Assembly: GCA_937910665.1 (NCBI GenBank)
Contig: CALEPR010000036.1
Coordinates: forward strand, 1,198-65,197
Length of the DNA stretch: 64,000 nucleotides
Direction of reading: 5' to 3'
Source: an uncultured Selenomonadales bacterium
Lineage (GTDB): Bacteria > Bacillota > Negativicutes > Selenomonadales > Selenomonadaceae
This document shows positions 2,519-63,821 of the stretch, piece after piece. The translations under genes and the position numbers were made by a program. Each line of letters opens with the position of its first letter. Position 1 is the first letter of the stretch. The notes below the pieces were generated by a model. It saw only the letters and a list, made by a program, of their open reading frames with translations, did not search any database and had not been told where the DNA came from.

Positions 2519-4039
2519 TCAACTTTCAATTGGCGGAGCAACTTTCATTTTCAAAAACATCATCACGCCGCCAAGACAAAGCAAACTGACTGCCAAACCT
2601 GCCCAGCCGTTTTGAGTTATGCCGTCAACCAAAAATCCGACAATACAGCAAGCTGAAACTGTTACAACGTAAGGAACTTGAGTTTCAACGTGTTCGAGGT
2701 GATTACACTGCGCCCCCGCCGATGCCAAAATTGTTGTATCGGAAATTGGCGAAGCATGATCGCCGCCGACCGAGCCGGACAAAATTGCCGCGACACAGAG
2801 AACTAAAAGTTGAGCCGCCTCTGCCTCAGGCAAGTTCGCAAGAATTGAAATTGAAATCGGAATCAAAATTCCAAAAGTTCCCCAGCTTGTTCCCGTTGCA
2901 AAAGCCAAACAAATTGCCACGATAAAAAATATTACAGGCAGGAAAACGGCAACATTATTATTTTCCTGAACAATTTCACCGACATAACCGCCAAGATTTA
3001 AATAGCTGTCGGAGCAAACTCCCGAAAGAGTCCAAGCCAAGCACAAAATAAAAATTGCAGGAACCATAGCTTTGAAACCTTGAGAGTAACATTCGCAGTA
3101 CTCGGAAAAGTTTATAACTTTTCTCGGCAGGTAGAGGAGCGAAATAAAAATCAGCGCGATGAACGAACCGAAAACTAAAGCCTGTGATGCGTCGCAATCT
3201 GCAAAAGCGTCAGCGATTGATTTTCCTTCGTGAATTCCTCCGGTGTACAACATTCCATAAATGCAGACAGAAATCAAAACGACCAGCGGCAAAACCAAGT
3301 CAATAATTTTTCCATTTCCGCCGACATTTTTTTCTGCCTCGACAGTGTCTTTGTATTCCTCAGGAATTTTGAAATCTTTAACATTGTCGTCAACAACTTT
3401 TCTCATCGTGGCAAAATCACGACCGCTGACAATTATAAAAGCCATAAAAACCATTGTTAAAATTGCGTAAAGATTGAAAGGAATTGTCTGCAAGAAAAGC
3501 GCAAAACCGTCGATGAAACTTCCTTCAGGCAGGGACGAGCCGACAGCCGCCGCCCAACTTGAAACTGGAGCGATAATACAAATTGGCGCAGCAGTCGAAT
3601 CGATAACGTAAGCCAATTTCGCCCGCGCGATTTTAAATTTGTCAGTGACCGGGCGCATAACAGTTCCGACAGTCAGACAGTTAAAATAGTCGTCGATAAA
3701 AATTAAAATTCCTAAAAATGCCGTAAGACCGAGCGCAGATTTTTTTCCCGAAATCACGCGACGCGCCCATTCTCCATAAGCGCGAGTTGCGCCCGACCGA
3801 GTTATCGCAGCGACCAAAATTCCCAAGATAACCAAGAACGCCAAAATATTAACGTTGCCGCCGACTTTGTTCGCCATAATTTCAAAAAAAGTCATGATAG
3901 ATTCAAAAAAATTTCCACCGGTAAAAAGCAGTGCGCCTGAAAAAATTCCAATTATCAGCGAAAAATAAACTTCCTTCGTGATAAGCGCAAGCGCGATTGT
4001 AATTATCGGCGGCAGGACTGACCAAGCAGTAGCTTCCAT
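2519..4039 (-). CDS. NhaC-family Na+/H+ antiporter-like membrane transporter
   Basis: 506 aa, highly hydrophobic. The N-terminus (SVLPPIITIALALITKEV) and overall layout resemble NhaC-family proteins. Confidence 0.65.
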   Translation of the reverse strand: MEATAWSVLPPIITIALALITKEVYFSLIIGIFSGALLFTGGNFFESIMTFFEIMANKVGGNVNILAFLVILGILVAAITRSGATRAYGEWARRVISGKKSALGLTAFLGILIFIDDYFNCLTVGTVMRPVTDKFKIARAKLAYVIDSTAAPICIIAPVSSWAAAVGSSLPEGSFIDGFALFLQTIPFNLYAILTMVFMAFIIVSGRDFATMRKVVDDNVKDFKIPEEYKDTVEAEKNVGGNGKIIDLVLPLVVLISVCIYGMLYTGGIHEGKSIADAFADCDASQALVFGSFIALIFISLLYLPRKVINFSEYCECYSQGFKAMVPAIFILCLAWTLSGVCSDSYLNLGGYVGEIVQENNNVAVFLPVIFFIVAICLAFATGTSWGTFGILIPISISILANLPEAEAAQLLVLCVAAILSGSVGGDHASPISDTTILASAGAQCNHLEHVETQVPYVVTVSACCIVGFLVDGITQNGWAGLAVSLLCLGGVMMFLKMKVAPPIES

Positions 4040-4146
4040 TTAAAATAAAACCTTCTTTCTAAAAAAATTAACGGCGATATTTTACAACAAAACCTTTATT
4101 CAAACAAGCCGTGAAAAATTTTTTCCAATCACACAGAAAAAATTTT

Positions 4147-5217
4147 TTAAATTTCTGCGGCAACTGCTTCGTCCTCTGACTGAGGTTTGCTCATAATTTG
4201 AATGTTGTAAGGATCTAAATGCAAACTTACTTCTTCGCCGACTTTTCGACCGTGAATAGATTGAACAAGCCAATCAAATCCTCCCGCCGAAACAATTATG
4301 TCGTAGGACATTCCCCAGAACCCGACGCGAGTTACAACTCCATTCAAGGCATTTTCCTGCGGCGCATCAAGCGTAATATCTTCAGGACGAATTTGAACAT
4401 CAACAGGACATTCTTCAGGAAAACCGACATCGACGCAAGGATAATCTCTTCCAAAAATTCTGACAAGTTTATCGCGAACCATAACTCCGTCAATAATATT
4501 ACTGTCACCGATGAAGTCAGCGACAAAAGCGTTTTCAGGTTCATTGTAAACATTTTCAGGCGTGCCTACCTGCTGAATATATCCTTGATTCATGACGACG
4601 ACTGTATCAGACATGGAAAGAGCTTCTTCTTGATCGTGAGTGACAAAAATAAAAGTTATTCCTGTTTCGCGATTGATTCTGACAAGTTCGTTTCTCATGG
4701 CGCGACGAAGTTTTAAATCGAGCGCGCTTAAAGGTTCGTCAAGCAATAAAACTTTCGGCTCATTGACAATGGCTCTGGCGATTGCAATTCGCTGTTGCTG
4801 ACCGCCCGAAAGTTTTGTAACGTCGTGAGTTTCATAACCGTCCAAGTTCACAAGTTTCAAAGCATATTTAATTTTTTCTTTGATGTAGTCGTCGGACTTG
4901 CCCGCGATTTTTGGACCGAAAGAAATATTTTCCTCAACATTCATGTGAGAGAAAAGAGAATATTTTTGAAAGACAGTGTTAATTGGTCTTTTGTTCGGTG
5001 GACTTTGAGTAATATCTTTGCCGTCGAAAATAATTTTTCCCGAGTCGGGCTGTTCAAAGCCTCCGATAATTCTGAGCAAAGTAGTTTTTCCGCAACCCGA
5101 AGGACCGAGCAAAGTTACAAATTCATTTTCATGAATTGTAAGATCAATTTCATCCAAGACAGTCAAACTTCCAAAAGTTTTAACAATATTTTCCAAATGA
5201 ATAAGTTCTCTTTTCAT
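4147..5217 (-). CDS. ABC importer ATP-binding protein, PotA/CysA-like with C-terminal TOBE-type domain
   Basis: Walker A GPSGCGKTT, signature LSGGQQQR, Walker B LLLDEP, and a ~110-aa C-terminal regulatory domain. Confidence 0.85.
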   Translation of the reverse strand: MKRELIHLENIVKTFGSLTVLDEIDLTIHENEFVTLLGPSGCGKTTLLRIIGGFEQPDSGKIIFDGKDITQSPPNKRPINTVFQKYSLFSHMNVEENISFGPKIAGKSDDYIKEKIKYALKLVNLDGYETHDVTKLSGGQQQRIAIARAIVNEPKVLLLDEPLSALDLKLRRAMRNELVRINRETGITFIFVTHDQEEALSMSDTVVVMNQGYIQQVGTPENVYNEPENAFVADFIGDSNIIDGVMVRDKLVRIFGRDYPCVDVGFPEECPVDVQIRPEDITLDAPQENALNGVVTRVGFWGMSYDIIVSAGGFDWLVQSIHGRKVGEEVSLHLDPYNIQIMSKPQSEDEAVAAEI

Positions 5218-56574: not shown

Positions 56575-57522
56575 TTAAAGACTTGTTTCCCAGAGCCAGT
56601 TGCGCACCTCAAGCTCCTCCAGATTATACGGAGTCTTCTGATAAACGCAGTAGTTGAGCCAGTTGGAAAACATAAGATTAGCCGTACACCTCCACGAAAA
56701 TACCGGAACATTATCCGGGTCATCGTTCGGAAAATAATTGTAAGGGAGCTGGATATCTATCCCCTTTTCGAGATCGCGGCGGTACTCGTTGGCAATGGTA
56801 TCGCGGTCATACTCGGAATGTCCCGTTATGAAGTACTGTCTGCCGTTCTTGTTGGCGACGATGTGGACGCCGGAAATATCCGACGAGGTAAGTATCTCAA
56901 GCTGTGGGATCCGCTCGATATCCTCGCGGCGGATCTCGGTGTTCCTTGAATGCGGCACGTAGAATATATCGTCGAAGCCTCTCAGAAGCTGACTGTTGCT
57001 GACCTCAGCCCTGTGGGGGAAAATGCCGAACATCTTACGTTCGAGCTGATACTTAGGTATCCCGTAGTGGTAGTAAAGTCCTGCCTGAGCCGCCCAGCAG
57101 ATGTAAAGGGTCGAGAAAACGTGAGTTTTTGACCATTCCATTATGCTGCATATCTCGTCCCAGTAATCGACCTCCTCGTATTCGAGCAGTTCTACGGGCG
57201 CTCCCGTGATTATCATGCCGTCGTAGCGGTTATTTTTAATCTCTGCAAAGGTCTTGTAGAACGCCTCGAGGTGGTGCTTCGAGGTATTGCGCGAGGTATG
57301 CGAAGCCATTTGCAGCAGGTCGATATCCACCTGCAAGGGGGTGTTGCTCAGCAGCCTGAGAAGCTGACTTTCCGTCTCTATCTTCTTTGGCATTATGTTG
57401 AGTATTACCACCTTAAGCGGACGGATATCCTGATGCTCCGCCCTTTCCTTTGACATTACAAATATATTTTCTTCTCCAAGCGTTTTGAATGCCGGGAGTT
57501 CAGAAGAAATACGTATTGGCAT
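56575..57522 (-). CDS. metA: Homoserine O-acyltransferase (MetA family)
   Basis: 315 aa with [10 protein letters not shown], the active-site region [13 protein letters not shown] and HSRNTE. Confidence 0.92.
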
Positions 57523-57640
57523 TTCAAATCGCTCCTTTCCGTTTAGATATTAGAGATCAGAGTTTAGATCTATGAGTCTCTGCTTCCCCCCTCATGCGGA
57601 GAGCAGCTTCCCGATTTAAAAATTCCCGCACCATATTTAC

Positions 57641-57692
57641 TCCCGCGAGCGATAGCAGACTATCTGCTTTCGCTCAACTGCACTATCATTAA
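57641..57692 (-). repeat. Dispersed intergenic repeat, copy D (in the metA leader)
   Basis: The minus strand reads TTAATGATAGTGCAGTTGAGCGAAAGCAGATAGTCTGCTATCGCTCGCGGGA. It includes a 12-bp hairpin (one mismatch): AGCGAAAGCAGA/TCTGCTATCGCT. Confidence 0.7.
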
Positions 57693-57836
57693 TGATGAAT
57701 CATTCACGCAAATAAATGCACAGGAGCGCATCTTTGCCCTTAACCTTTGCAGGGCTCTGCCCTGCACCCGCTAAAGGGGCAGTCGCCCCTTTAGCCGGGG
57801 TTCGGGGACAGCGTCCCCGGATAAACAAAATACAAA

Positions 57837-57862
57837 GAGGGCGGACTTGAAAGTCCGCCCTT
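57837..57862 (-). terminator. Rho-independent terminator after the glycyl-radical gene
   Basis: On the minus strand AGGGCGGACTT-tca-AAGTCCGCCCT is followed by CTTTGTATTTTGTTT. Confidence 0.7.
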
Positions 57863-57865
57863 GCA

Positions 57866-58105
57866 TCAGAGTGATGAGTGGAATGTTCTTGAGATAACGT
57901 CGTCCTGCTGCTCCTTGGTGAGCTTGACGAAGTTGACTGCGTAGCCCGAAACTCTTACCGTGAGCTGGGGGTACTTCTCGGGGTGAGCCTGAGCGTCGAG
58001 GAGCGTTTCCTTGGTGAAAACGTTTACGTTGAGGTGATGACCGCCCTTTTCGACATACCCGTCGATCAGTTCGATTAGGTTATCTACCTGTTTCTGATTA
58101 TCCAT
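57866..58105 (-). CDS. grcA: Stand-alone glycyl-radical domain protein (GrcA/YfiD-like; C-terminal domain of PFL)
   Basis: 79 aa. [55 protein letters not shown] matches the PFL/GrcA radical domain, including RVSGY. It has its own AGGAGG SD. Confidence 0.9.
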
Positions 58106-58120
58106 AATATAGTTCCTCCT

Positions 58121-58333
58121 TTATTCTTCGTCGCCGAATTCCTCGGTAGGCTGCATACAAGCGCCCTTTGCGCCCGAGCAGTCCGTACTTTTTACGGTCT
58201 GCACGCTTACCTGCGGGGAATTCCCGTTTACCGATATATTAACGTGTCCGCTGCCCTGAGCCATGAGCTTATCTATCAGGTCGGCGAGCTCCTCCGGGTC
58301 GTCCGGAGCTTTAATGATATCCTGCTGCGTCAT
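58121..58333 (-). CDS. Small acidic ORF between the PFL core and the radical domain
   Basis: 70 aa. ATGA overlap with the PFL core stop. The segment [21 protein letters not shown] resembles [20 protein letters not shown] of the next gene. No glycine-radical motif. Confidence 0.55.
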
Positions 58334-60393
58334 TCTTCACCTCTGAGCTTGTCGAGGTCGATATCTCCGACGAAAATGTCAGCGTCCTTGCCGAGCGCGT
58401 TGGGGATTATCGAGAAGGTATTCGAGATACCGTCCTGAGCGTGGCGGAATGGGAGCTTTGCTACGGACGAGAGCGAGGCGACTGCGCCGTGGGTATCTCT
58501 GCCGTGCATGGGGTTAGCTCCGGGAGCGAGCGGAACTCCCTGTTTTCTTCCGTCGGGAGTATTGCCGGTCTTTTTGCCGTAAACCACGTTTGAGGTGATG
58601 GTCAGTATCGACATCGTGGGAACGCCGTCGCGGTAGGTGTGGTGTTTGCGTATGCAGTCCATGAACTTGCGGACTACGGTCACGGCGATATCGTCCACGC
58701 GGTCGTCGTTGTTGCCGTATTTGGGGAAATCTCCCTCAACCTCATAGTCTGTGACGATGCCGTTCTCATCGCGTATCACCTTGACCTTTGCGTACTTTAT
58801 AGCCGAGAGTGAGTCCGCAACGACGGAAAGCCCTGCGATACCGGTCGCGAAATAGCGCTTTACATCGCGGTCGTGGAGCGCCATTTGCAGCTTCTCATAG
58901 CAGTATTTATCGTGCATATAGTGGATAACGTTGAGCGTGTTGACGTAAAGACCTGCGAGCCATTCCATCATTGCCTCGTACTTATCCCATACGTCATCAA
59001 AGTCGAGGTAATCGCCCTCAACGGGACGGAATTTCGGTCCTACCTGAACCTTCATTCTCTCGTCCACACCGCCGTTTATCGCGTAAAGCAGGCACTTGGC
59101 GAGGTTAGCACGCGCGCCGAAGAACTGCATTTCCTTGCCGACCCTCATTGAGGATACACAGCAGGCGATAGCGTAGTCGTCGCCGTGGATAACTCTCATC
59201 ATGTCATCGTTCTCGTACTGTATAGATGAAGTCCTTATCGACATTTTAGCGCAGTATTCCTTGAACTTCCTCGGGAGCTTCTGAGACCAGAGGACGGTCA
59301 TATTCGGTTCGGGAGCCGTGCCGAGGTTTTCGAGCGTATGGAGGTAGCGGAAGCTGTTTTTCGTTACGAGGTGGTGACCGTCAACATCGACTCCGCCGAT
59401 AGACTCTGTTATCCATGTGGGGTCGCCCGAGAAGAGCTCGTTATATTCGGGAGTTCGTGCGAACTTCACGATACGCAGCTTCATGATGAAGTGGTCGATG
59501 AGCTCCTGAGCCTGCTGTTCGGTGATGATGCCCTTTTCGAGGTCGCGCTGGATATAGATATCGAGGAAGGTGGAGGTGCGTCCGAGTGACATAGCCGCTC
59601 CGTTCTGCTCCTTTACAGCGGCGAGGTAGCCGAAATACAGCCACTGAACGGCTTCCTTGGCGGTTGCGGCGGGCTTTGAGATGTCGAAGCCGTAGATACT
59701 TCCGAGCTCTCTGAGCTCCTCAAGGGCGCGGACCTGTTCCGCGAGCTCCTCACGCAGACGGATATTTTTCGAGGTCATTCTGATGAGGGAGGTATCTATC
59801 TGGTGTTTTTTGTCCTCTATGAGCCTGTCCACGCCGTAGAGGGCAACGCGCCTGTAATCGCCGATTATACGTCCTCTGCCGTAGGCGTCGGGGAGTCCGG
59901 TGATGATAGCGGATTTTCTTGCAAGGCGCATTTCGGGGGTATAAGCGTCGAAAACGCCCTGATTATGGGTCTTTCTGTATTTTGTGAATATTTTTACTAT
60001 TTCGGGGTCTACCTCATAGCCGTAATTTTCACACGCCTTCTGAGCCATTCTGATACCGCCGAAGGGCTGAAGCGAACGCTTGAAGGGCTTGTCCGTCTGG
60101 AGCCCGACGATCTGTTCGAGATCTTTATTGAGATAGCCTGCAGGGTGAGAGGTTATGGTCGAGACGATCTTTGTATCCATATCGAGGACACCGCCTGCCT
60201 CGCGCTCCTGACGTGAAAGCTCCATTATCTGATCCCAGAGCTGTTTTGTTGCCTCGGTAGGAGGTTCAAGGAAGCTCTCGTCCCCGTCGTAGGGGGTATA
60301 ATTCTTCTTGATGAAGTCTCTGACGTTTACGGAGGTATTGCTCCAGCGTCCCTCGCGGAAGCCTTCCCACTCATTTGCCCATGTTTTGGTCAT
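58330..60393 (-). CDS. pflB: Pyruvate formate-lyase catalytic core lacking the glycyl-radical domain
   Basis: 687 aa. Active-site [12 protein letters not shown] is present. The sequence is collinear with PFL up to [12 protein letters not shown] and then ends after 15 unrelated residues. Confidence 0.88.
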
Positions 60394-60653
60394 GATCCCA
60401 GCACTCCTTTACAGTTAAAAATAACTTTATATAGTTATTGTTCCCGCGGTCGGCTTCTGGCTTATTGTCTGTATTGCACGGCAGCTCTTCAAGAGCTGAT
60501 CGGGGGAGCAATAAAAATGACCTTACAAATACAATGATACCACATTGTCTAATAATTGTCAATCTCCGTGTTAACTTAAGCTATCAGAAAATATCTGAAA
60601 TTTCAGCGGATAATTTGGTGATTTGTGAGAAGCCGGTGTTGAAAAGTATATGT

Positions 60654-61865
60654 TCACTTCCTTACAGACTTCTTTGAAGAAGCCGGCTTTGACTTTTTGG
60701 GCGGCTTTTTGCCGGAGCTTTTGTTTTCGGGGCGAGATTTTATCCCGAGCTCCTTCTCTTTGCTTTCGAGCTTTTCAAAGCTGAGCTTGTATATCGTCGC
60801 CGCGAGCGGAACGCCAAGAAGCATTCCCAGTATGCCGAAAAGTCCGCCGCCTACCGTTACCGCTGCGAGCACCCATAAGCTCGGAAGCCCCACAGATGAA
60901 CCGACTACCTTCGGGTATATCACATTTCCCTCGAATTGCTGGAGGATTATCAGGAAGATGATGAAGATCACCGCCTGCATCGGGTCCACAGTGAGGATAA
61001 TGAAGGCACTTATCCCCGCGCCTATGAAGGCTCCGACTATGGGGATAAGGGCGGTAATGCCGACAAGAGTCCCCGACATAGCCGCATACGGCAGCCTGAG
61101 CACCTTCATGCCGAGAAAGCAAAGCGTTCCCAGTATTATCGCCTCGATAAACTGCCCTACAAAGAAGCTACGGAAGGTATCGTTTGCTGTGTGGTATATG
61201 TGCCTGAACCTTTTGTTGAAGTCATCGCTGAAATAGGCGTTCATGCCCCTCTTGACATCAGCGCAGAGCTTATCCTTGCGCAGAAGCATATATATCGCAA
61301 AAATTATCCCGAGGACTATGTTCGTAACTGTTACGGTTATACCGCCGATGATGCCGACAGCCGAGCTCAGTATGCCTGCAAGCCCCGTGGTGAGTATGCC
61401 CGTGGCTTTTTCCGCAATGGAAGCCCAGTCGAATTCTATCTCGCTTAAGCTTTTCTGGATATCGGGGTATTCCTGAAGCTTGCCGATGACGAGGTCCCTC
61501 AGCTTTATGAACTGGGGAGGTATTTCATCGTAGAGCACCCCGAAAGCCTCGGCGACCTCGGGTATCACTATATTCAGTATCATTACGATGATAGCCGCTG
61601 TAAGTGCAAATGAAAATACAAGGCATACCGGACGGCGCGTTATCGCGGCAAAGCGCGTATCCGAAGAGGGGAAATAGTGCTTTTCAAAAAAGTTCATCAG
61701 GATATTGAAGATGTATGCGATAACGCAGCCGATGATGAAGGGCTTTACCGCGCTGAGCGCTATGGCAAACAGCTTTGATATCACAGAGAAGTTCTGTACC
61801 GTCACGCATACCGCTACTGCGAGGACGGCGATAAATATATATCGTTTTATCTCTTTTTTGTCCAT
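60654..61865 (-). CDS. AI-2E family transporter (PerM/UPF0118)
   Basis: 403 aa with 8 TM segments and the conserved late motif QQFEGNVIYPKVVGSSVGLP. Lys-rich C-terminal tail. Confidence 0.85.
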   Translation of the reverse strand: MDKKEIKRYIFIAVLAVAVCVTVQNFSVISKLFAIALSAVKPFIIGCVIAYIFNILMNFFEKHYFPSSDTRFAAITRRPVCLVFSFALTAAIIVMILNIVIPEVAEAFGVLYDEIPPQFIKLRDLVIGKLQEYPDIQKSLSEIEFDWASIAEKATGILTTGLAGILSSAVGIIGGITVTVTNIVLGIIFAIYMLLRKDKLCADVKRGMNAYFSDDFNKRFRHIYHTANDTFRSFFVGQFIEAIILGTLCFLGMKVLRLPYAAMSGTLVGITALIPIVGAFIGAGISAFIILTVDPMQAVIFIIFLIILQQFEGNVIYPKVVGSSVGLPSLWVLAAVTVGGGLFGILGMLLGVPLAATIYKLSFEKLESKEKELGIKSRPENKSSGKKPPKKSKPASSKKSVRK

Positions 61866-61974
61866 GTATAAACTAAACTACCTTTCTGAACGTCAATGAT
61901 TTCCACTTATATTATACAACACAACCTGTAGGAAATCAACAGGTCGTTCGTAAAAATTTGGTAAACAGCGAGCC

Positions 61975-62003
61975 TTGACCGTTTGTCCGGAGAATGGTAT
62001 AAT
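61975..62003 (+). promoter_or_regulatory. Sigma70-like promoter with extended -10 upstream of the GGDEF gene
   Basis: TTGACC, 17-nt spacer ending in TGg, then TATAAT (61998-62003). Confidence 0.55.
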
Positions 62004-62030
62004 ATACTAAAACGGCAAAGGAGGTCGTAC

Positions 62031-63821
62031 ATGAACGCTGCAAACGATTTTCTGAATGAACAGATGTACAGCATGGGCAGGGTCATCGTTGACAGGAGCT
62101 TTCATACCCAGAGCGCCGATGAGGCGTTTTTCAGCTACTTCGGCAACGACGTTATATACTCCATAAGGCGTACTATAGACGATGAGGATTTCCCGAGGAT
62201 ACAGGAATGCATAGACAGCATCGCGGAAGGAGAGCTGCGCCGCACGGTCATCAGGGTCAAGGGGATAAACGGCTATATCCGCTGGGCGCTCGCCTCAGTC
62301 AGGCTCACCGATAACACTCCTGACCGGCAGCTTTTCGAGATAGCCTTCAGCGATATATATTCCCTCGAAAGCCTTGCTTACGGCAAGGAGCGGCAGGTCT
62401 CGGAATACCGCTATGTCCTCAGCCTCATAAGCGACCTCGCCTTTGAGTATCGCTTCGAGACAAAGCGGATACGCATTTATATGTACGACTGCTGCCGCGA
62501 TATCGTCCTCGTTGACGCCGACCTCGAGCAATGGCGGAAAGACGCGCTCGACCGCGGCTATGTTCTCTCGCGCTATGCCGAGACCTTCAACAGCCTCTGC
62601 CGCGATATCAGCAGCGGCGTTTACCGCTTTGACTATGAATTCGAGTCATCGCTGCTCACCTCCGGCAAGACGAGAGAGATGTGCCTTTTCAGGGGTATAA
62701 CCCGCTATGACGACCCGGATTCCAAAAAGGTAACGGGCATAATCTCATCTGTCAGCTCGGGACGCAAAAGCAAGGACGTAAACCTCGCCCTCGAAGCGAA
62801 CAAGGACTCGCTCTCGGGTTTGCTCAACAAGCGCGCCATAACCTCGTTCGCTCAGCAGATACTTGCCGGAAAACCTCAGTATAACGTCAATCTGGTGATA
62901 CTCGATATCGACAACTTCACGGACATAAACAACAGCTACGGTCATCTTTTCGGCGATGAGGTCATCTACACGATAGCGCGCATAATCAAGACCGAGATAG
63001 GTACGCGCGGACTTGCCGGAAGAATAAGCGGCGGCGGATACCTCATAGTCCTCGAGGACACCCGCGATGAGACCGACCTGCGCGGTATCCTCCGCGCTAT
63101 CCGCACCAAGACTGAGTTCGCATTCAGCGACCGCTTTGAGAACTTCCGCCTGACTTGCTCTATGGGAGTTTCGACCTATCCTATAGATAGTATGGATTAC
63201 GACGAGCTTTTTATGCAGGCGGACAAGGCGCTGTATCTCGCTCAGGAAAAGGGTCAGAACCGATACGTCATCTACGATATCGCAAAGCACGGTCCCGTTG
63301 AAAAGGACATCGAGAACAAAATTGCCTTCCTCAGCGGAAAGGGGGAGGCTTCCGAGAAGCTTTCATTCGTGGGACAGCTTGCGGAATGGCTCGTGCTCGG
63401 GCGGACTCCCGACATCTCGGTGCTGCTCGAACAGATACGCCTGTGCTTCGGTATAGATGATATCTGCGTATTCGCAGGCAACGACATGAGCCTCATACTA
63501 AGCTGCGGAAACGCCGTTTCAAAAAATGCGGCTTACCTTTTATCAAATGATTATACGGGAAGATTTTCGGGCGACGGTATATTCGTCATCGACAATGTAA
63601 ACGAGCTTGAAGGGCGCGACGACAACGCTTTTGAACAGCTTACCGACCAGAATATCGGCGGCGCTGTCCAGTACCTCATTACCGAGGACAGCATTGTCAA
63701 GGGGGTCATCTCGTTCTGCTACATAGGGCGGTTCAAGAAATGGGCTGTCTCGGACATCAACTACCTCGCTATCATAGGGCGGACGGTCACGGCTCTGCTG
63801 AAAAAGCAGGCGTACATCTGA
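62031..63821 (+). CDS. GGDEF-domain protein with degenerate active site, flanked by N- and C-terminal sensor-like domains
   Basis: ATG at 62031 follows an AAAGGAGG SD. The central domain has DIDNFTDINNSYGHLFGDEV...GRISGGGYLIVL...ADKALYLAQEKGQNRY, with SGGGY in place of GGDEF. Confidence 0.8.
   Translation: MNAANDFLNEQMYSMGRVIVDRSFHTQSADEAFFSYFGNDVIYSIRRTIDDEDFPRIQECIDSIAEGELRRTVIRVKGINGYIRWALASVRLTDNTPDRQLFEIAFSDIYSLESLAYGKERQVSEYRYVLSLISDLAFEYRFETKRIRIYMYDCCRDIVLVDADLEQWRKDALDRGYVLSRYAETFNSLCRDISSGVYRFDYEFESSLLTSGKTREMCLFRGITRYDDPDSKKVTGIISSVSSGRKSKDVNLALEANKDSLSGLLNKRAITSFAQQILAGKPQYNVNLVILDIDNFTDINNSYGHLFGDEVIYTIARIIKTEIGTRGLAGRISGGGYLIVLEDTRDETDLRGILRAIRTKTEFAFSDRFENFRLTCSMGVSTYPIDSMDYDELFMQADKALYLAQEKGQNRYVIYDIAKHGPVEKDIENKIAFLSGKGEASEKLSFVGQLAEWLVLGRTPDISVLLEQIRLCFGIDDICVFAGNDMSLILSCGNAVSKNAAYLLSNDYTGRFSGDGIFVIDNVNELEGRDDNAFEQLTDQNIGGAVQYLITEDSIVKGVISFCYIGRFKKWAVSDINYLAIIGRTVTALLKKQAYI

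Follow-up and report, generated by a model that had tools for sequence, protein, structure and literature searches.

Is a pyruvate formate-lyase (PFL) that is encoded in pieces a damaged gene or a working enzyme? The question is raised by three consecutive minus-strand open reading frames (ORFs) at positions 57866-60393 of a 64-kb stretch of contig CALEPR010000036.1, called the window here. They encode, in the direction of transcription, a PFL catalytic core of 687 amino acids (aa) without a glycyl-radical domain (58330..60393), a stand-alone protein of 70 aa, referred to below as the middle protein (58121..58333), and GrcA3, a glycyl-radical subunit of 79 aa (57866..58105). We read the locus as a single operon for a PFL built from separate polypeptides, in which GrcA3 would give the radical domain in trans, and we put the probability of this reading, which rests on sequence comparison, at roughly 80%. 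In anaerobic fermentation, formate is made from pyruvate mainly by PFL, and it feeds methanogens and acetogens of the rumen and gut.

Core, radical subunit and the break between them

By its score against the curated equivalog model TIGR01255 (1138.2 bits, cutoff 994.2), of which it covers positions 1-667 of 744, the core passes as a bona fide PFL, and it matches PF02901 with 754 bits. Its residues 5-673 align to residues 7-680 of Escherichia coli PflB (PDB 1h16), the whole corresponding to PflB 1-680 plus a short tail. The adjacent active-site cysteines that the PFL family requires are present as Cys411-Cys412 (AIACCVSS, codons at 59158..59163, minus strand), equated with E. coli C418/C419 by alignment to PFL structures. 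The first-pass annotation, made from the letters of the sequence, had called the ORF collinear with PFL including this site, and the model match and the PflB alignment bear this out. What the core lacks is the family trait of a radical domain on the same polypeptide: it covers only positions 2-49 of the 106 in Pfam Gly_radical. The second half of that model, positions 50-106, is matched by GrcA3, whose residues 2-78 align to PflB 677-758 and which is 63% identical to the C-terminus of the E. coli enzyme. GrcA3 consists of a helix, strand beta-10, the Gly loop RVSGYAV, which is intact, and a C-terminal helix, with Gly54 (codon at 57944..57946, minus strand) as the predicted radical site, equivalent to E. 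coli Gly734 in the alignment of the loop. Across core and GrcA3 together every PFL hallmark is present (GGHHLNVNV strand, CC site and RVSGYAV). Because the core ends at PflB 680 and GrcA3 begins at 677, the alignments place the break at about PflB residue 677-680, approximately 16 residues before the structured part of YfiD (also named GrcA), in agreement with the earlier placement just upstream of the region supplied by GrcA/YfiD.

GrcA3 is already known, as an NCBI curated model and as a name. The window protein passes that model, NCBIfam NF038360 "autonomous glycyl radical cofactor GrcA3", with 166.4 bits (cutoff 158), scores 95.9 against the GrcA model TIGR04365, which is under the cutoff of 170, and has relatives from Ruminococcus, Oscillospiraceae, Beduini and other metagenome-assembled genomes (MAGs) that carry the GrcA3 name. 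This name describes a spare part, whereas the partner in the window is a PFL without a radical domain. Nor does a back-up for a full-length PFL describe the relation to the adjacent partner, which is without a radical domain in the window itself and at 79 of 80 related loci. As the partner enzyme carries no such domain itself, GrcA3 is probably, on this comparison, no spare part but an obligate subunit.

The ATG of the middle gene and the TGA of the core overlap as ATGA, and the Shine-Dalgarno sequence of the middle gene sits in the last core codons (AGAGGTGAAGAA). The TAA of the middle gene is followed by a 15-nt spacer (58106..58120, minus strand) that includes AGGAGG, the ribosome-binding site of GrcA3, and then by the GrcA3 start. 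These junctions are as the first-pass annotation had described them, and so is the radical domain as a separate downstream gene of 79 aa with its own AGGAGG. The further claim of that annotation, that the junctions are functional and not decayed, is upheld by the comparisons below. An opposite explanation would have the locus be a pseudogenised pflB, or a sequencing or assembly error, with GrcA3 a spare part for a full-length PFL encoded elsewhere; the NCBI family name implies such a repair role (autonomous cofactor, model name 'rad_fix'), and the window has no adjacent activase gene. But the stops, both junctions and the 15-nt spacer are identical in an independent assembly from the European Nucleotide Archive (L090), which is 99.05% identical over the 2528 nt; the 24 differences comprise 22 in the core, with 4 amino-acid changes, and one synonymous change in each of the two small genes. 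L090 was reached through P0242, a 99% relative of the window core, and for the 100%-identical core P0241 an exact-sequence look-up gave no contig on record. The nearest 120 core homologues in a collection of 5.8 billion proteins likewise argue against decay, all 120 being 680-722 aa long and ending at the same place; those named by NCBI are called "formate C-acetyltransferase". Ratios of nonsynonymous to synonymous substitution (dN/dS) against the related Ruminococcus locus L001 are 0.064 (core), 0.20 (middle gene) and 0.029 (GrcA3), and the core stays at 0.03-0.09 where the ratio could be estimated, which is in few pairs, synonymous sites being saturated in most. By this measure selection on all three genes is purifying, and strongly so on the core. 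Moreover, the truncated core always adjoins GrcA3, in about 79 species of several families and usually with pflA following, and the tail past the break is itself conserved. We consider decay or error improbable, and a functional natural split of PFL strongly supported by these sequence comparisons.

The tail deserves separate mention because it had been passed over as 15 unrelated residues. That description holds with respect to E. coli PFL, from which the residues after GKDAD in the core differ, yet they form an acidic C-terminal tail (58333..58383, minus strand) with a motif of the type [IV]FxGD[IL]D[LV]D that is conserved among split-type cores; by pattern it is found in 49/51 three-gene and 27/28 two-gene cores of the survey described next.

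Relatives of GrcA3, sampled as one genome per species of the Genome Taxonomy Database, amount to at least 588 loci, of which the best 80, all at least 80% identical, were analysed. On this scale a split PFL would be common to hundreds of species of gut and rumen bacteria. Fifty-one of them have core, middle gene and GrcA3 (three-gene loci), 28 have core and GrcA3 (two-gene loci) and one is fused. A PFL core without a radical domain stands directly upstream of GrcA3 in every split locus with enough upstream DNA, and Gly54 is invariant in all 79 GrcA3 sequences, as are most other positions. The survey of relatives that the first-pass annotation had proposed thus finds the same split in 79 of the 80 best loci and in several Bacillota families. 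Ruminococcus (including R. callidus ATCC 27760 and R. flavefaciens MAGs), Oscillospiraceae, Acutalibacteraceae, Lachnospiraceae (Lachnoclostridium phytofermentans, Faecalimonas, Tyzzerella), Erysipelotrichaceae (Beduini massiliensis) and Ruminiclostridium are all among these 80, together with single MAGs labelled Gastranaerophilales and Treponemataceae.

In the two-gene loci (for example L036, L041, L042, L046, L049, L050, L052, L054, L060, L061, L064 and L065, and further L070, L071, L075, L078, L079, L080, L082, L083, L087 and L088) the gap between core and GrcA3 is 6-119 nt, the interrupted locus L089 excepted. On a neighbour-joining tree of the cores, built without support values, the two-gene systems are scattered among the three-gene ones, in at least four separate places, and this suggests that the two forms were interconverted repeatedly, in one direction or the other. 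L089 carries an interrupted split-type core at 2867-4963, in pieces of 591 and 73 aa, the sole broken core among the 80, which may be a genuine pseudogene or an assembly frameshift. In L047, a Candidatus Gastranaerophilales MAG from a non-photosynthetic cyanobacterial lineage, GrcA3 is accompanied by a split-type core whose very short tail is rich in Cys (..DCGCATCQV); this would be a split PFL outside the Bacillota, if the binning is right.

The fused gene belongs to a Treponemataceae MAG (L066:2880-5240). It encodes an unsplit PFL of 786 aa that shares 81% identity with the window core and whose C-terminus is GrcA3-like; between ALGKD and the radical domain runs a linker that holds a Cys pair (..SMKNYGNCMSCDTATIMAAP..; ..GNCMSCD..). 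It could be either an ancestral-like fused form or a secondary re-fusion, and the Treponemataceae label may reflect horizontal transfer or a binning error. This gene lends some colour to the idea that recoding, by a -1 frameshift at the ATGA and/or readthrough of the TAA, produces a single full-length PFL with an insertion also in the window, where the middle gene and GrcA3 share a frame and are parted by one TAA and 15 nt. The relatives do not follow such a scheme, however, for the junctions between core and middle gene vary from an 11-nt overlap to a 23-nt gap, and middle gene and GrcA3 are separated by anything between 12 nt and over 50 nt, frequently with a change of frame. Every gene comes with a ribosome-binding site of its own, and neither an Rfam element nor an obvious frameshift signal was found at the locus. 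We therefore regard recoding as very improbable, and separate translation of the three proteins remains our preferred reading.

The middle protein and the cysteine pair

The first-pass annotation had described a split into a core and a radical subunit. The split is real, but the parts number three, the 70-aa ORF between the two being a member of a conserved family that is related to the radical domain. The middle protein has 155 homologues, and when 1.84 billion representative proteins were searched with its profile, 102 clusters at 50% identity came up, all with members of 34-129 aa and none fused to PFL or to any other protein. The family consensus is M-x(8-12)-[DE]EL[AV]xxIDxLMxxGxGHxNV...VxTxxSxDC-x(2-5)-GACxQPTE and then an acidic end. 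Pfam, NCBIfam, PHROG and PDB, searched by sequence and by profile, gave no match to the middle protein; hits such as those to a troponin C EF-hand and to P22 tailspike were dismissed as noise (E >0.04).

Its residues 8-36 (58226..58312, minus strand), a helix and a strand, align with GrcA3 residues 2-30, that is, with the start of the radical domain and its beta-10 equivalent, the common hallmark being G-x-G-H-x-N-[IV]-x-V. In hhalign this comparison has a probability of 94.5%, E = 8e-8 and a score of 39.9 over 29 columns, against scores of 9.1-9.4 for reversed profiles and a mean of 9.6 (maximum 13.6) for 60 column shuffles. Judged by these profile comparisons, which are robust against the controls, the radical domain and the middle protein are homologous over the N-terminal half of the latter, which corresponds to the domain's first helix and barrel strand. 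The protein lacks the RVSGY radical glycine loop and the C-terminal helix, and is not a member of PF01228. An AlphaFold2 (AF2) model of the middle protein alone has a beta-alpha-beta-beta order with helix 13-25 and strand 28-35, and a disordered Cys/acidic tail; with a mean predicted local distance difference test (pLDDT) of 69 and no Foldseek match to PDB with E <0.09, a fold assignment from the model was dropped. Outside its two motifs the middle protein diverges very fast: in L010, L012, L017, L019, L021 and L022 it is 51-60% identical to that of the window, in genomes where the cores are 92-94% and the GrcA3 proteins 91-99% identical.

The second motif, C-x(2-7)-C-x(1-3)-P-[TNS] followed by an acidic end, lies at residues 51-64 of the middle protein (58142..58183, minus strand). 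This Cys pair is within the middle protein in 51/51 three-gene loci (50 by the strict pattern and L074 by eye, where a longer acidic tail puts it outside the scanned stretch), and none of the 51 core tails in these loci has a Cys. In 27/28 two-gene loci the pair instead ends the core tail, as in ...GDIEVDLDCSNGACASPTLFEGLDAE, which is comparable to the divergent middle protein ends ...ACQVPTLHEGLDGKE. Exactly one Cys pair per system is thus found in 78/79 split loci, and by sequence the C-terminal Cys motif of the middle protein is the motif that ends the core tail of two-gene systems. Any function of these two elements is inferred. Least anticipated at this locus are the existence of a third protein and the universal conservation of the paired cysteines.

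Fragmentation of an enzyme gene, with Cys residues near the junction region, also recalls protein trans-splicing, in which a split intein would join the pieces into one chain. The lengths and the residues do not suit it: the core tail (~17 residues) and the ~8 residues of GrcA3 ahead of its homologous region are too short for intein halves, no Hint/intein domain is present in any of the three proteins, and the core tails of all 51 three-gene systems are without a Cys. We give trans-splicing a negligible chance. A ribosomally synthesised and post-translationally modified peptide (RiPP) or SCIFF-type peptide was likewise considered for the middle protein and is unlikely, as it has two Cys only and no dedicated maturase, and the motif is part of the enzyme in two-gene systems.

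Proposed assembly of a PFL with a separate radical subunit

The closest known system is E. coli PflB with GrcA/YfiD (and phage T4 Y06I), where, as here, a small radical-glycine protein completes a PFL that has no working radical domain. E. coli PflB is a full-length protein of 759 aa, unlike the window core, and GrcA is its unlinked back-up after O2 cleavage, whereas the core described here never occurs with its own radical domain and the small protein is co-transcribed with it and presumably obligatory. GrcA3 aligns to residues 68-127 of E. coli GrcA. It has no counterpart of the disordered N-terminus of ~60 residues, which in E. coli GrcA favours activation, and it starts ~16 residues earlier in PFL numbering (677 vs 693); the structured part of YfiD/GrcA, residues 61-127, corresponds to PflB 693-759 (PMC8683613). 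The split systems further differ from PflB/GrcA by their conserved acidic tail, their Cys pair and, in many cases, the third protein. Set against the PFL and GrcA families, then, the window has a core without the radical domain, and a small protein without the disordered N-terminus whose adjacent partner is not full-length.

Essentially the same two-piece architecture has been made artificially by Andorfer et al. (2021), who combined E. coli tPFL(1-695) with a truncated YfiD(61-127) and obtained a complex that has the wild-type architecture and, once activated, is as active as the wild type (PMC8683613). The natural split cuts ~15 residues before the engineered one. Residues 696-733 of O2-cleaved E. 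coli PFL are a recognition element for YfiD (PMC8683613), and the middle protein resembles this retained, displaced segment; in sequence terms it amounts approximately to a free-standing counterpart of PFL segment 681-733.

Other glycyl radical enzymes are multi-subunit as well. Benzylsuccinate synthase and 4-hydroxyphenylacetate decarboxylase have small extra subunits, some of them Cys-rich and metal-binding, beside the large glycyl radical subunit, and the gene-split ribonucleotide reductases are a precedent for natural fission of a radical enzyme gene. In those multi-subunit enzymes the radical glycine stays on the large subunit, whereas here the radical domain is the small subunit, and sequence searches gave no similarity of the window proteins to their small subunits.

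Two PDB entries named 'Formate acetyltransferase', 38la (687 aa) and 38lb (739 aa), are the best-scoring structures for the core. They seem to lack the radical domain, as a PDB search with GrcA3 found neither, and the searches with GrcA3 and with the middle protein gave no GrcA3-like or middle-like chain in either entry. The tail of 38lb (GKSGNVMFGECDMCEM) aligns to the window core tail and includes a Cys pair. Both entries come from other lineages, with 72-81% identity over the last ~140 residues to any fetched locus. Because the PDB holds these structures seemingly without a radical domain, others are probably studying split PFL enzymes. In the open-access papers and bioRxiv texts searched, neither a split PFL nor GrcA3 was described, and no source seen there or at NCBI notes that the PFL partner of GrcA3 is without a radical domain or that the system has a third small protein. 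A glycyl radical enzyme review of June 2026 knows spare parts only for formate lyases, discusses them as repair factors and leaves split PFL unmentioned (PMC13450708).

By homology, the three proteins could work together as follows. The core would form the catalytic barrel with its Cys-Cys loop and stop where the radical domain of an ordinary PFL starts. GrcA3 would dock into it like a cis radical domain, contributing the tenth barrel strand, the Gly finger facing the Cys-Cys loop and the C-terminal helix. The radical on Gly54 of GrcA3 would be made by a PFL activase whose gene lies elsewhere in the genome, after which the complex of GrcA3 and core could turn pyruvate and CoA into acetyl-CoA and formate. 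As the O2-sensitive part is a cheap, separate protein of 79 residues, damaged radical subunits might be exchanged without remaking the 77-kDa core. By analogy with E. coli, such a "replaceable fuse", as the first-pass annotation had suggested, is plausible; after O2 cleavage only the 79-residue protein would have to be replaced, and it could be activated off the enzyme. The middle protein would be a third, accessory component that combines a copy of the radical-domain helix and strand with the Cys-pair/acidic motif. It may act in one of two forms, either as a recognition or clamping element for GrcA3, like PFL residues 696-733, or as a placeholder, a glycine-less mimic in the empty strand slot of a GrcA3-free core; we hold both clamp and placeholder with low confidence.

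A different role for the middle protein is that of a regulator, either a redox- or metal-sensing Cys switch or an inhibitor that competes with GrcA3 and keeps the core off until anoxia. Since the protein keeps the G-x-G-H-x-N strand residues and has lost the radical glycine, it could sit in the strand slot and yet not be open to activation; every system conserves the Cys pair, and the protein evolves much faster than its neighbours, at 51-62% identity where the cores are at 88-94%. On the other side, two-gene systems do without the helix-strand part, so that a competing role is not essential, and they hold the Cys motif covalently in the core; the AF2 model is moderate (pLDDT 69) and has no significant Foldseek match. 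A regulatory function is on balance unlikely, though it keeps far more weight than decay, recoding or splicing, and an accessory function in assembly remains our preference.

Several results weigh against the picture of a trans-assembled enzyme in which the middle protein takes part. In the E. coli work, binding of YfiD to truncated PFL was not detectable by isothermal titration calorimetry and activation was poor (PMC8683613). The middle protein is missing from 28/80 systems, so its helix-strand part is dispensable. Among the 79 GrcA3 sequences we saw no clear signature that separates three-gene from two-gene systems, which therefore gives no support to a specific contact between middle protein and GrcA3. 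The 64-kb window has no pflA-like ORF of at least 150 aa with the radical-SAM CxxxCxxC motif. AF2 on the concatenated core, middle protein and GrcA3 was uninformative (mean pLDDT 41, predicted template modelling score 0.37) because the alignment was too shallow, the core homologues all being at least 90% identical; how GrcA3 would dock and where the middle protein would sit is hence deduced from homology. The first of these results can also be turned round: because the truncated E. coli core binds YfiD poorly, a natural split PFL probably needs extra binding determinants, for which, by analogy, the tail, the Cys pair and the middle protein are candidates and may solve the binding problem.

Indirect support for function, by analogy, comes from Clostridium phytofermentans, a formate producer. 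For this species Cphy_2823 is listed as the pfl and cphy2820 as the activase, and formate yield rose along with cphy2820 transcription (PMC3561251, PMC9765743); Cphy_1174, one further gene with a pfl annotation, encodes a propanediol dehydratase of a microcompartment (PMC3557285). In L077 (strain KNHs2131, a relative of C. phytofermentans) the gene order is core-middle-GrcA3-pflA, and the four consecutive tags from Cphy_2823 to cphy2820 fit this order, as judged from their numbering.

If the split holds true in Ruminococcus and in many Oscillospiraceae, Lachnospiraceae and Erysipelotrichaceae, the textbook view, which has the radical domain in cis and spare parts for emergencies only, is incomplete, and nature has already solved the weak binding and poor activation of the engineered truncated PFL and YfiD, with tail, Cys pair and middle protein as the obvious candidates for the solution. 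The exit of the radical domain from the barrel to the activase would then become directly testable with separable natural components. Current annotation presents the core as a complete formate C-acetyltransferase, the radical subunit as a repair factor and the middle gene as hypothetical. A still broader proposal, which we hold as speculative and doubtful, is that split PFL is standard in much of the gut and rumen Bacillota, that GrcA3 is a consumable cofactor activated off the enzyme by PflA, and that the acidic tail and Cys pair, borne in three-gene systems by the 70-aa protein, form a hitherto unrecognised device for loading, latching or redox- or metal-sensing that controls insertion and release of the radical subunit. 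One possibility within this proposal is that the glycine-less mimic occupies the non-radical protomer of a half-of-sites dimer.

Probable transcription unit, activase and neighbouring genes

A sigma-70-like promoter, TTGACA-17-TATCAT with an extended TG (60534..60562, minus strand), lies ~140 nt 5' of the core start codon; it matches the consensus at 11/12 positions, a likeness that does not imply functional proof. At the other end an intrinsic terminator, a hairpin of 10 bp (7 G-C) with 11-nt arms that are 100% complementary, followed by a T-rich tract (57838..57861, minus strand), starts 5 nt past the GrcA3 stop codon. A promoter scan between the three genes gave a single weak match, within the core coding sequence. 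With one promoter-like site, one terminator and only this weak internal match, core, middle gene and GrcA3 look like one transcription unit.

The absence of an adjacent pflA had been remarked on in the first-pass annotation, and none was seen in the 64 kb. The CxxxCxxC scan gave two chance-looking matches, one in an ORF of 166 aa, and the nearer large ORFs are by Pfam an AI-2E transporter, a GGDEF protein, a homoserine O-succinyltransferase and cell-wall genes, with no activase among them. Among relatives, pflA is found within 5 kb in 26/28 two-gene and 24/51 three-gene loci, in many of them directly after GrcA3 and in the two-gene loci almost always so, and the R. flavefaciens-like group, to which the window belongs, has no adjacent pflA. 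A Lachnoclostridium MAG carries, directly downstream of its split-PFL operon, a distant second glycyl radical enzyme of 841 aa, 25% identical to the core and with its own activase (L050:6153-9484).

Past the terminator and before the homoserine O-succinyltransferase gene, at 57737-57825, lies a cluster of GC-rich imperfect hairpins with arms such as CCCGCTAAAGGGGC/GCCCCTTTAGCCGG and TTTAGCCGGGG/CCCCGGATAAA. Its 45-nt core has no second copy in the window and no Rfam match, and an Rfam scan of 57000-61000 found nothing. Upstream of the operon, in the stretch 60654-63821, the AI-2E transporter gene is syntenic in the related Ruminococcus genomes L001-L003 and L090, and in L090, the nearest relative, the GGDEF gene is also syntenic with the split-PFL operon. 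The genes 3' of GrcA3 vary between related genomes.

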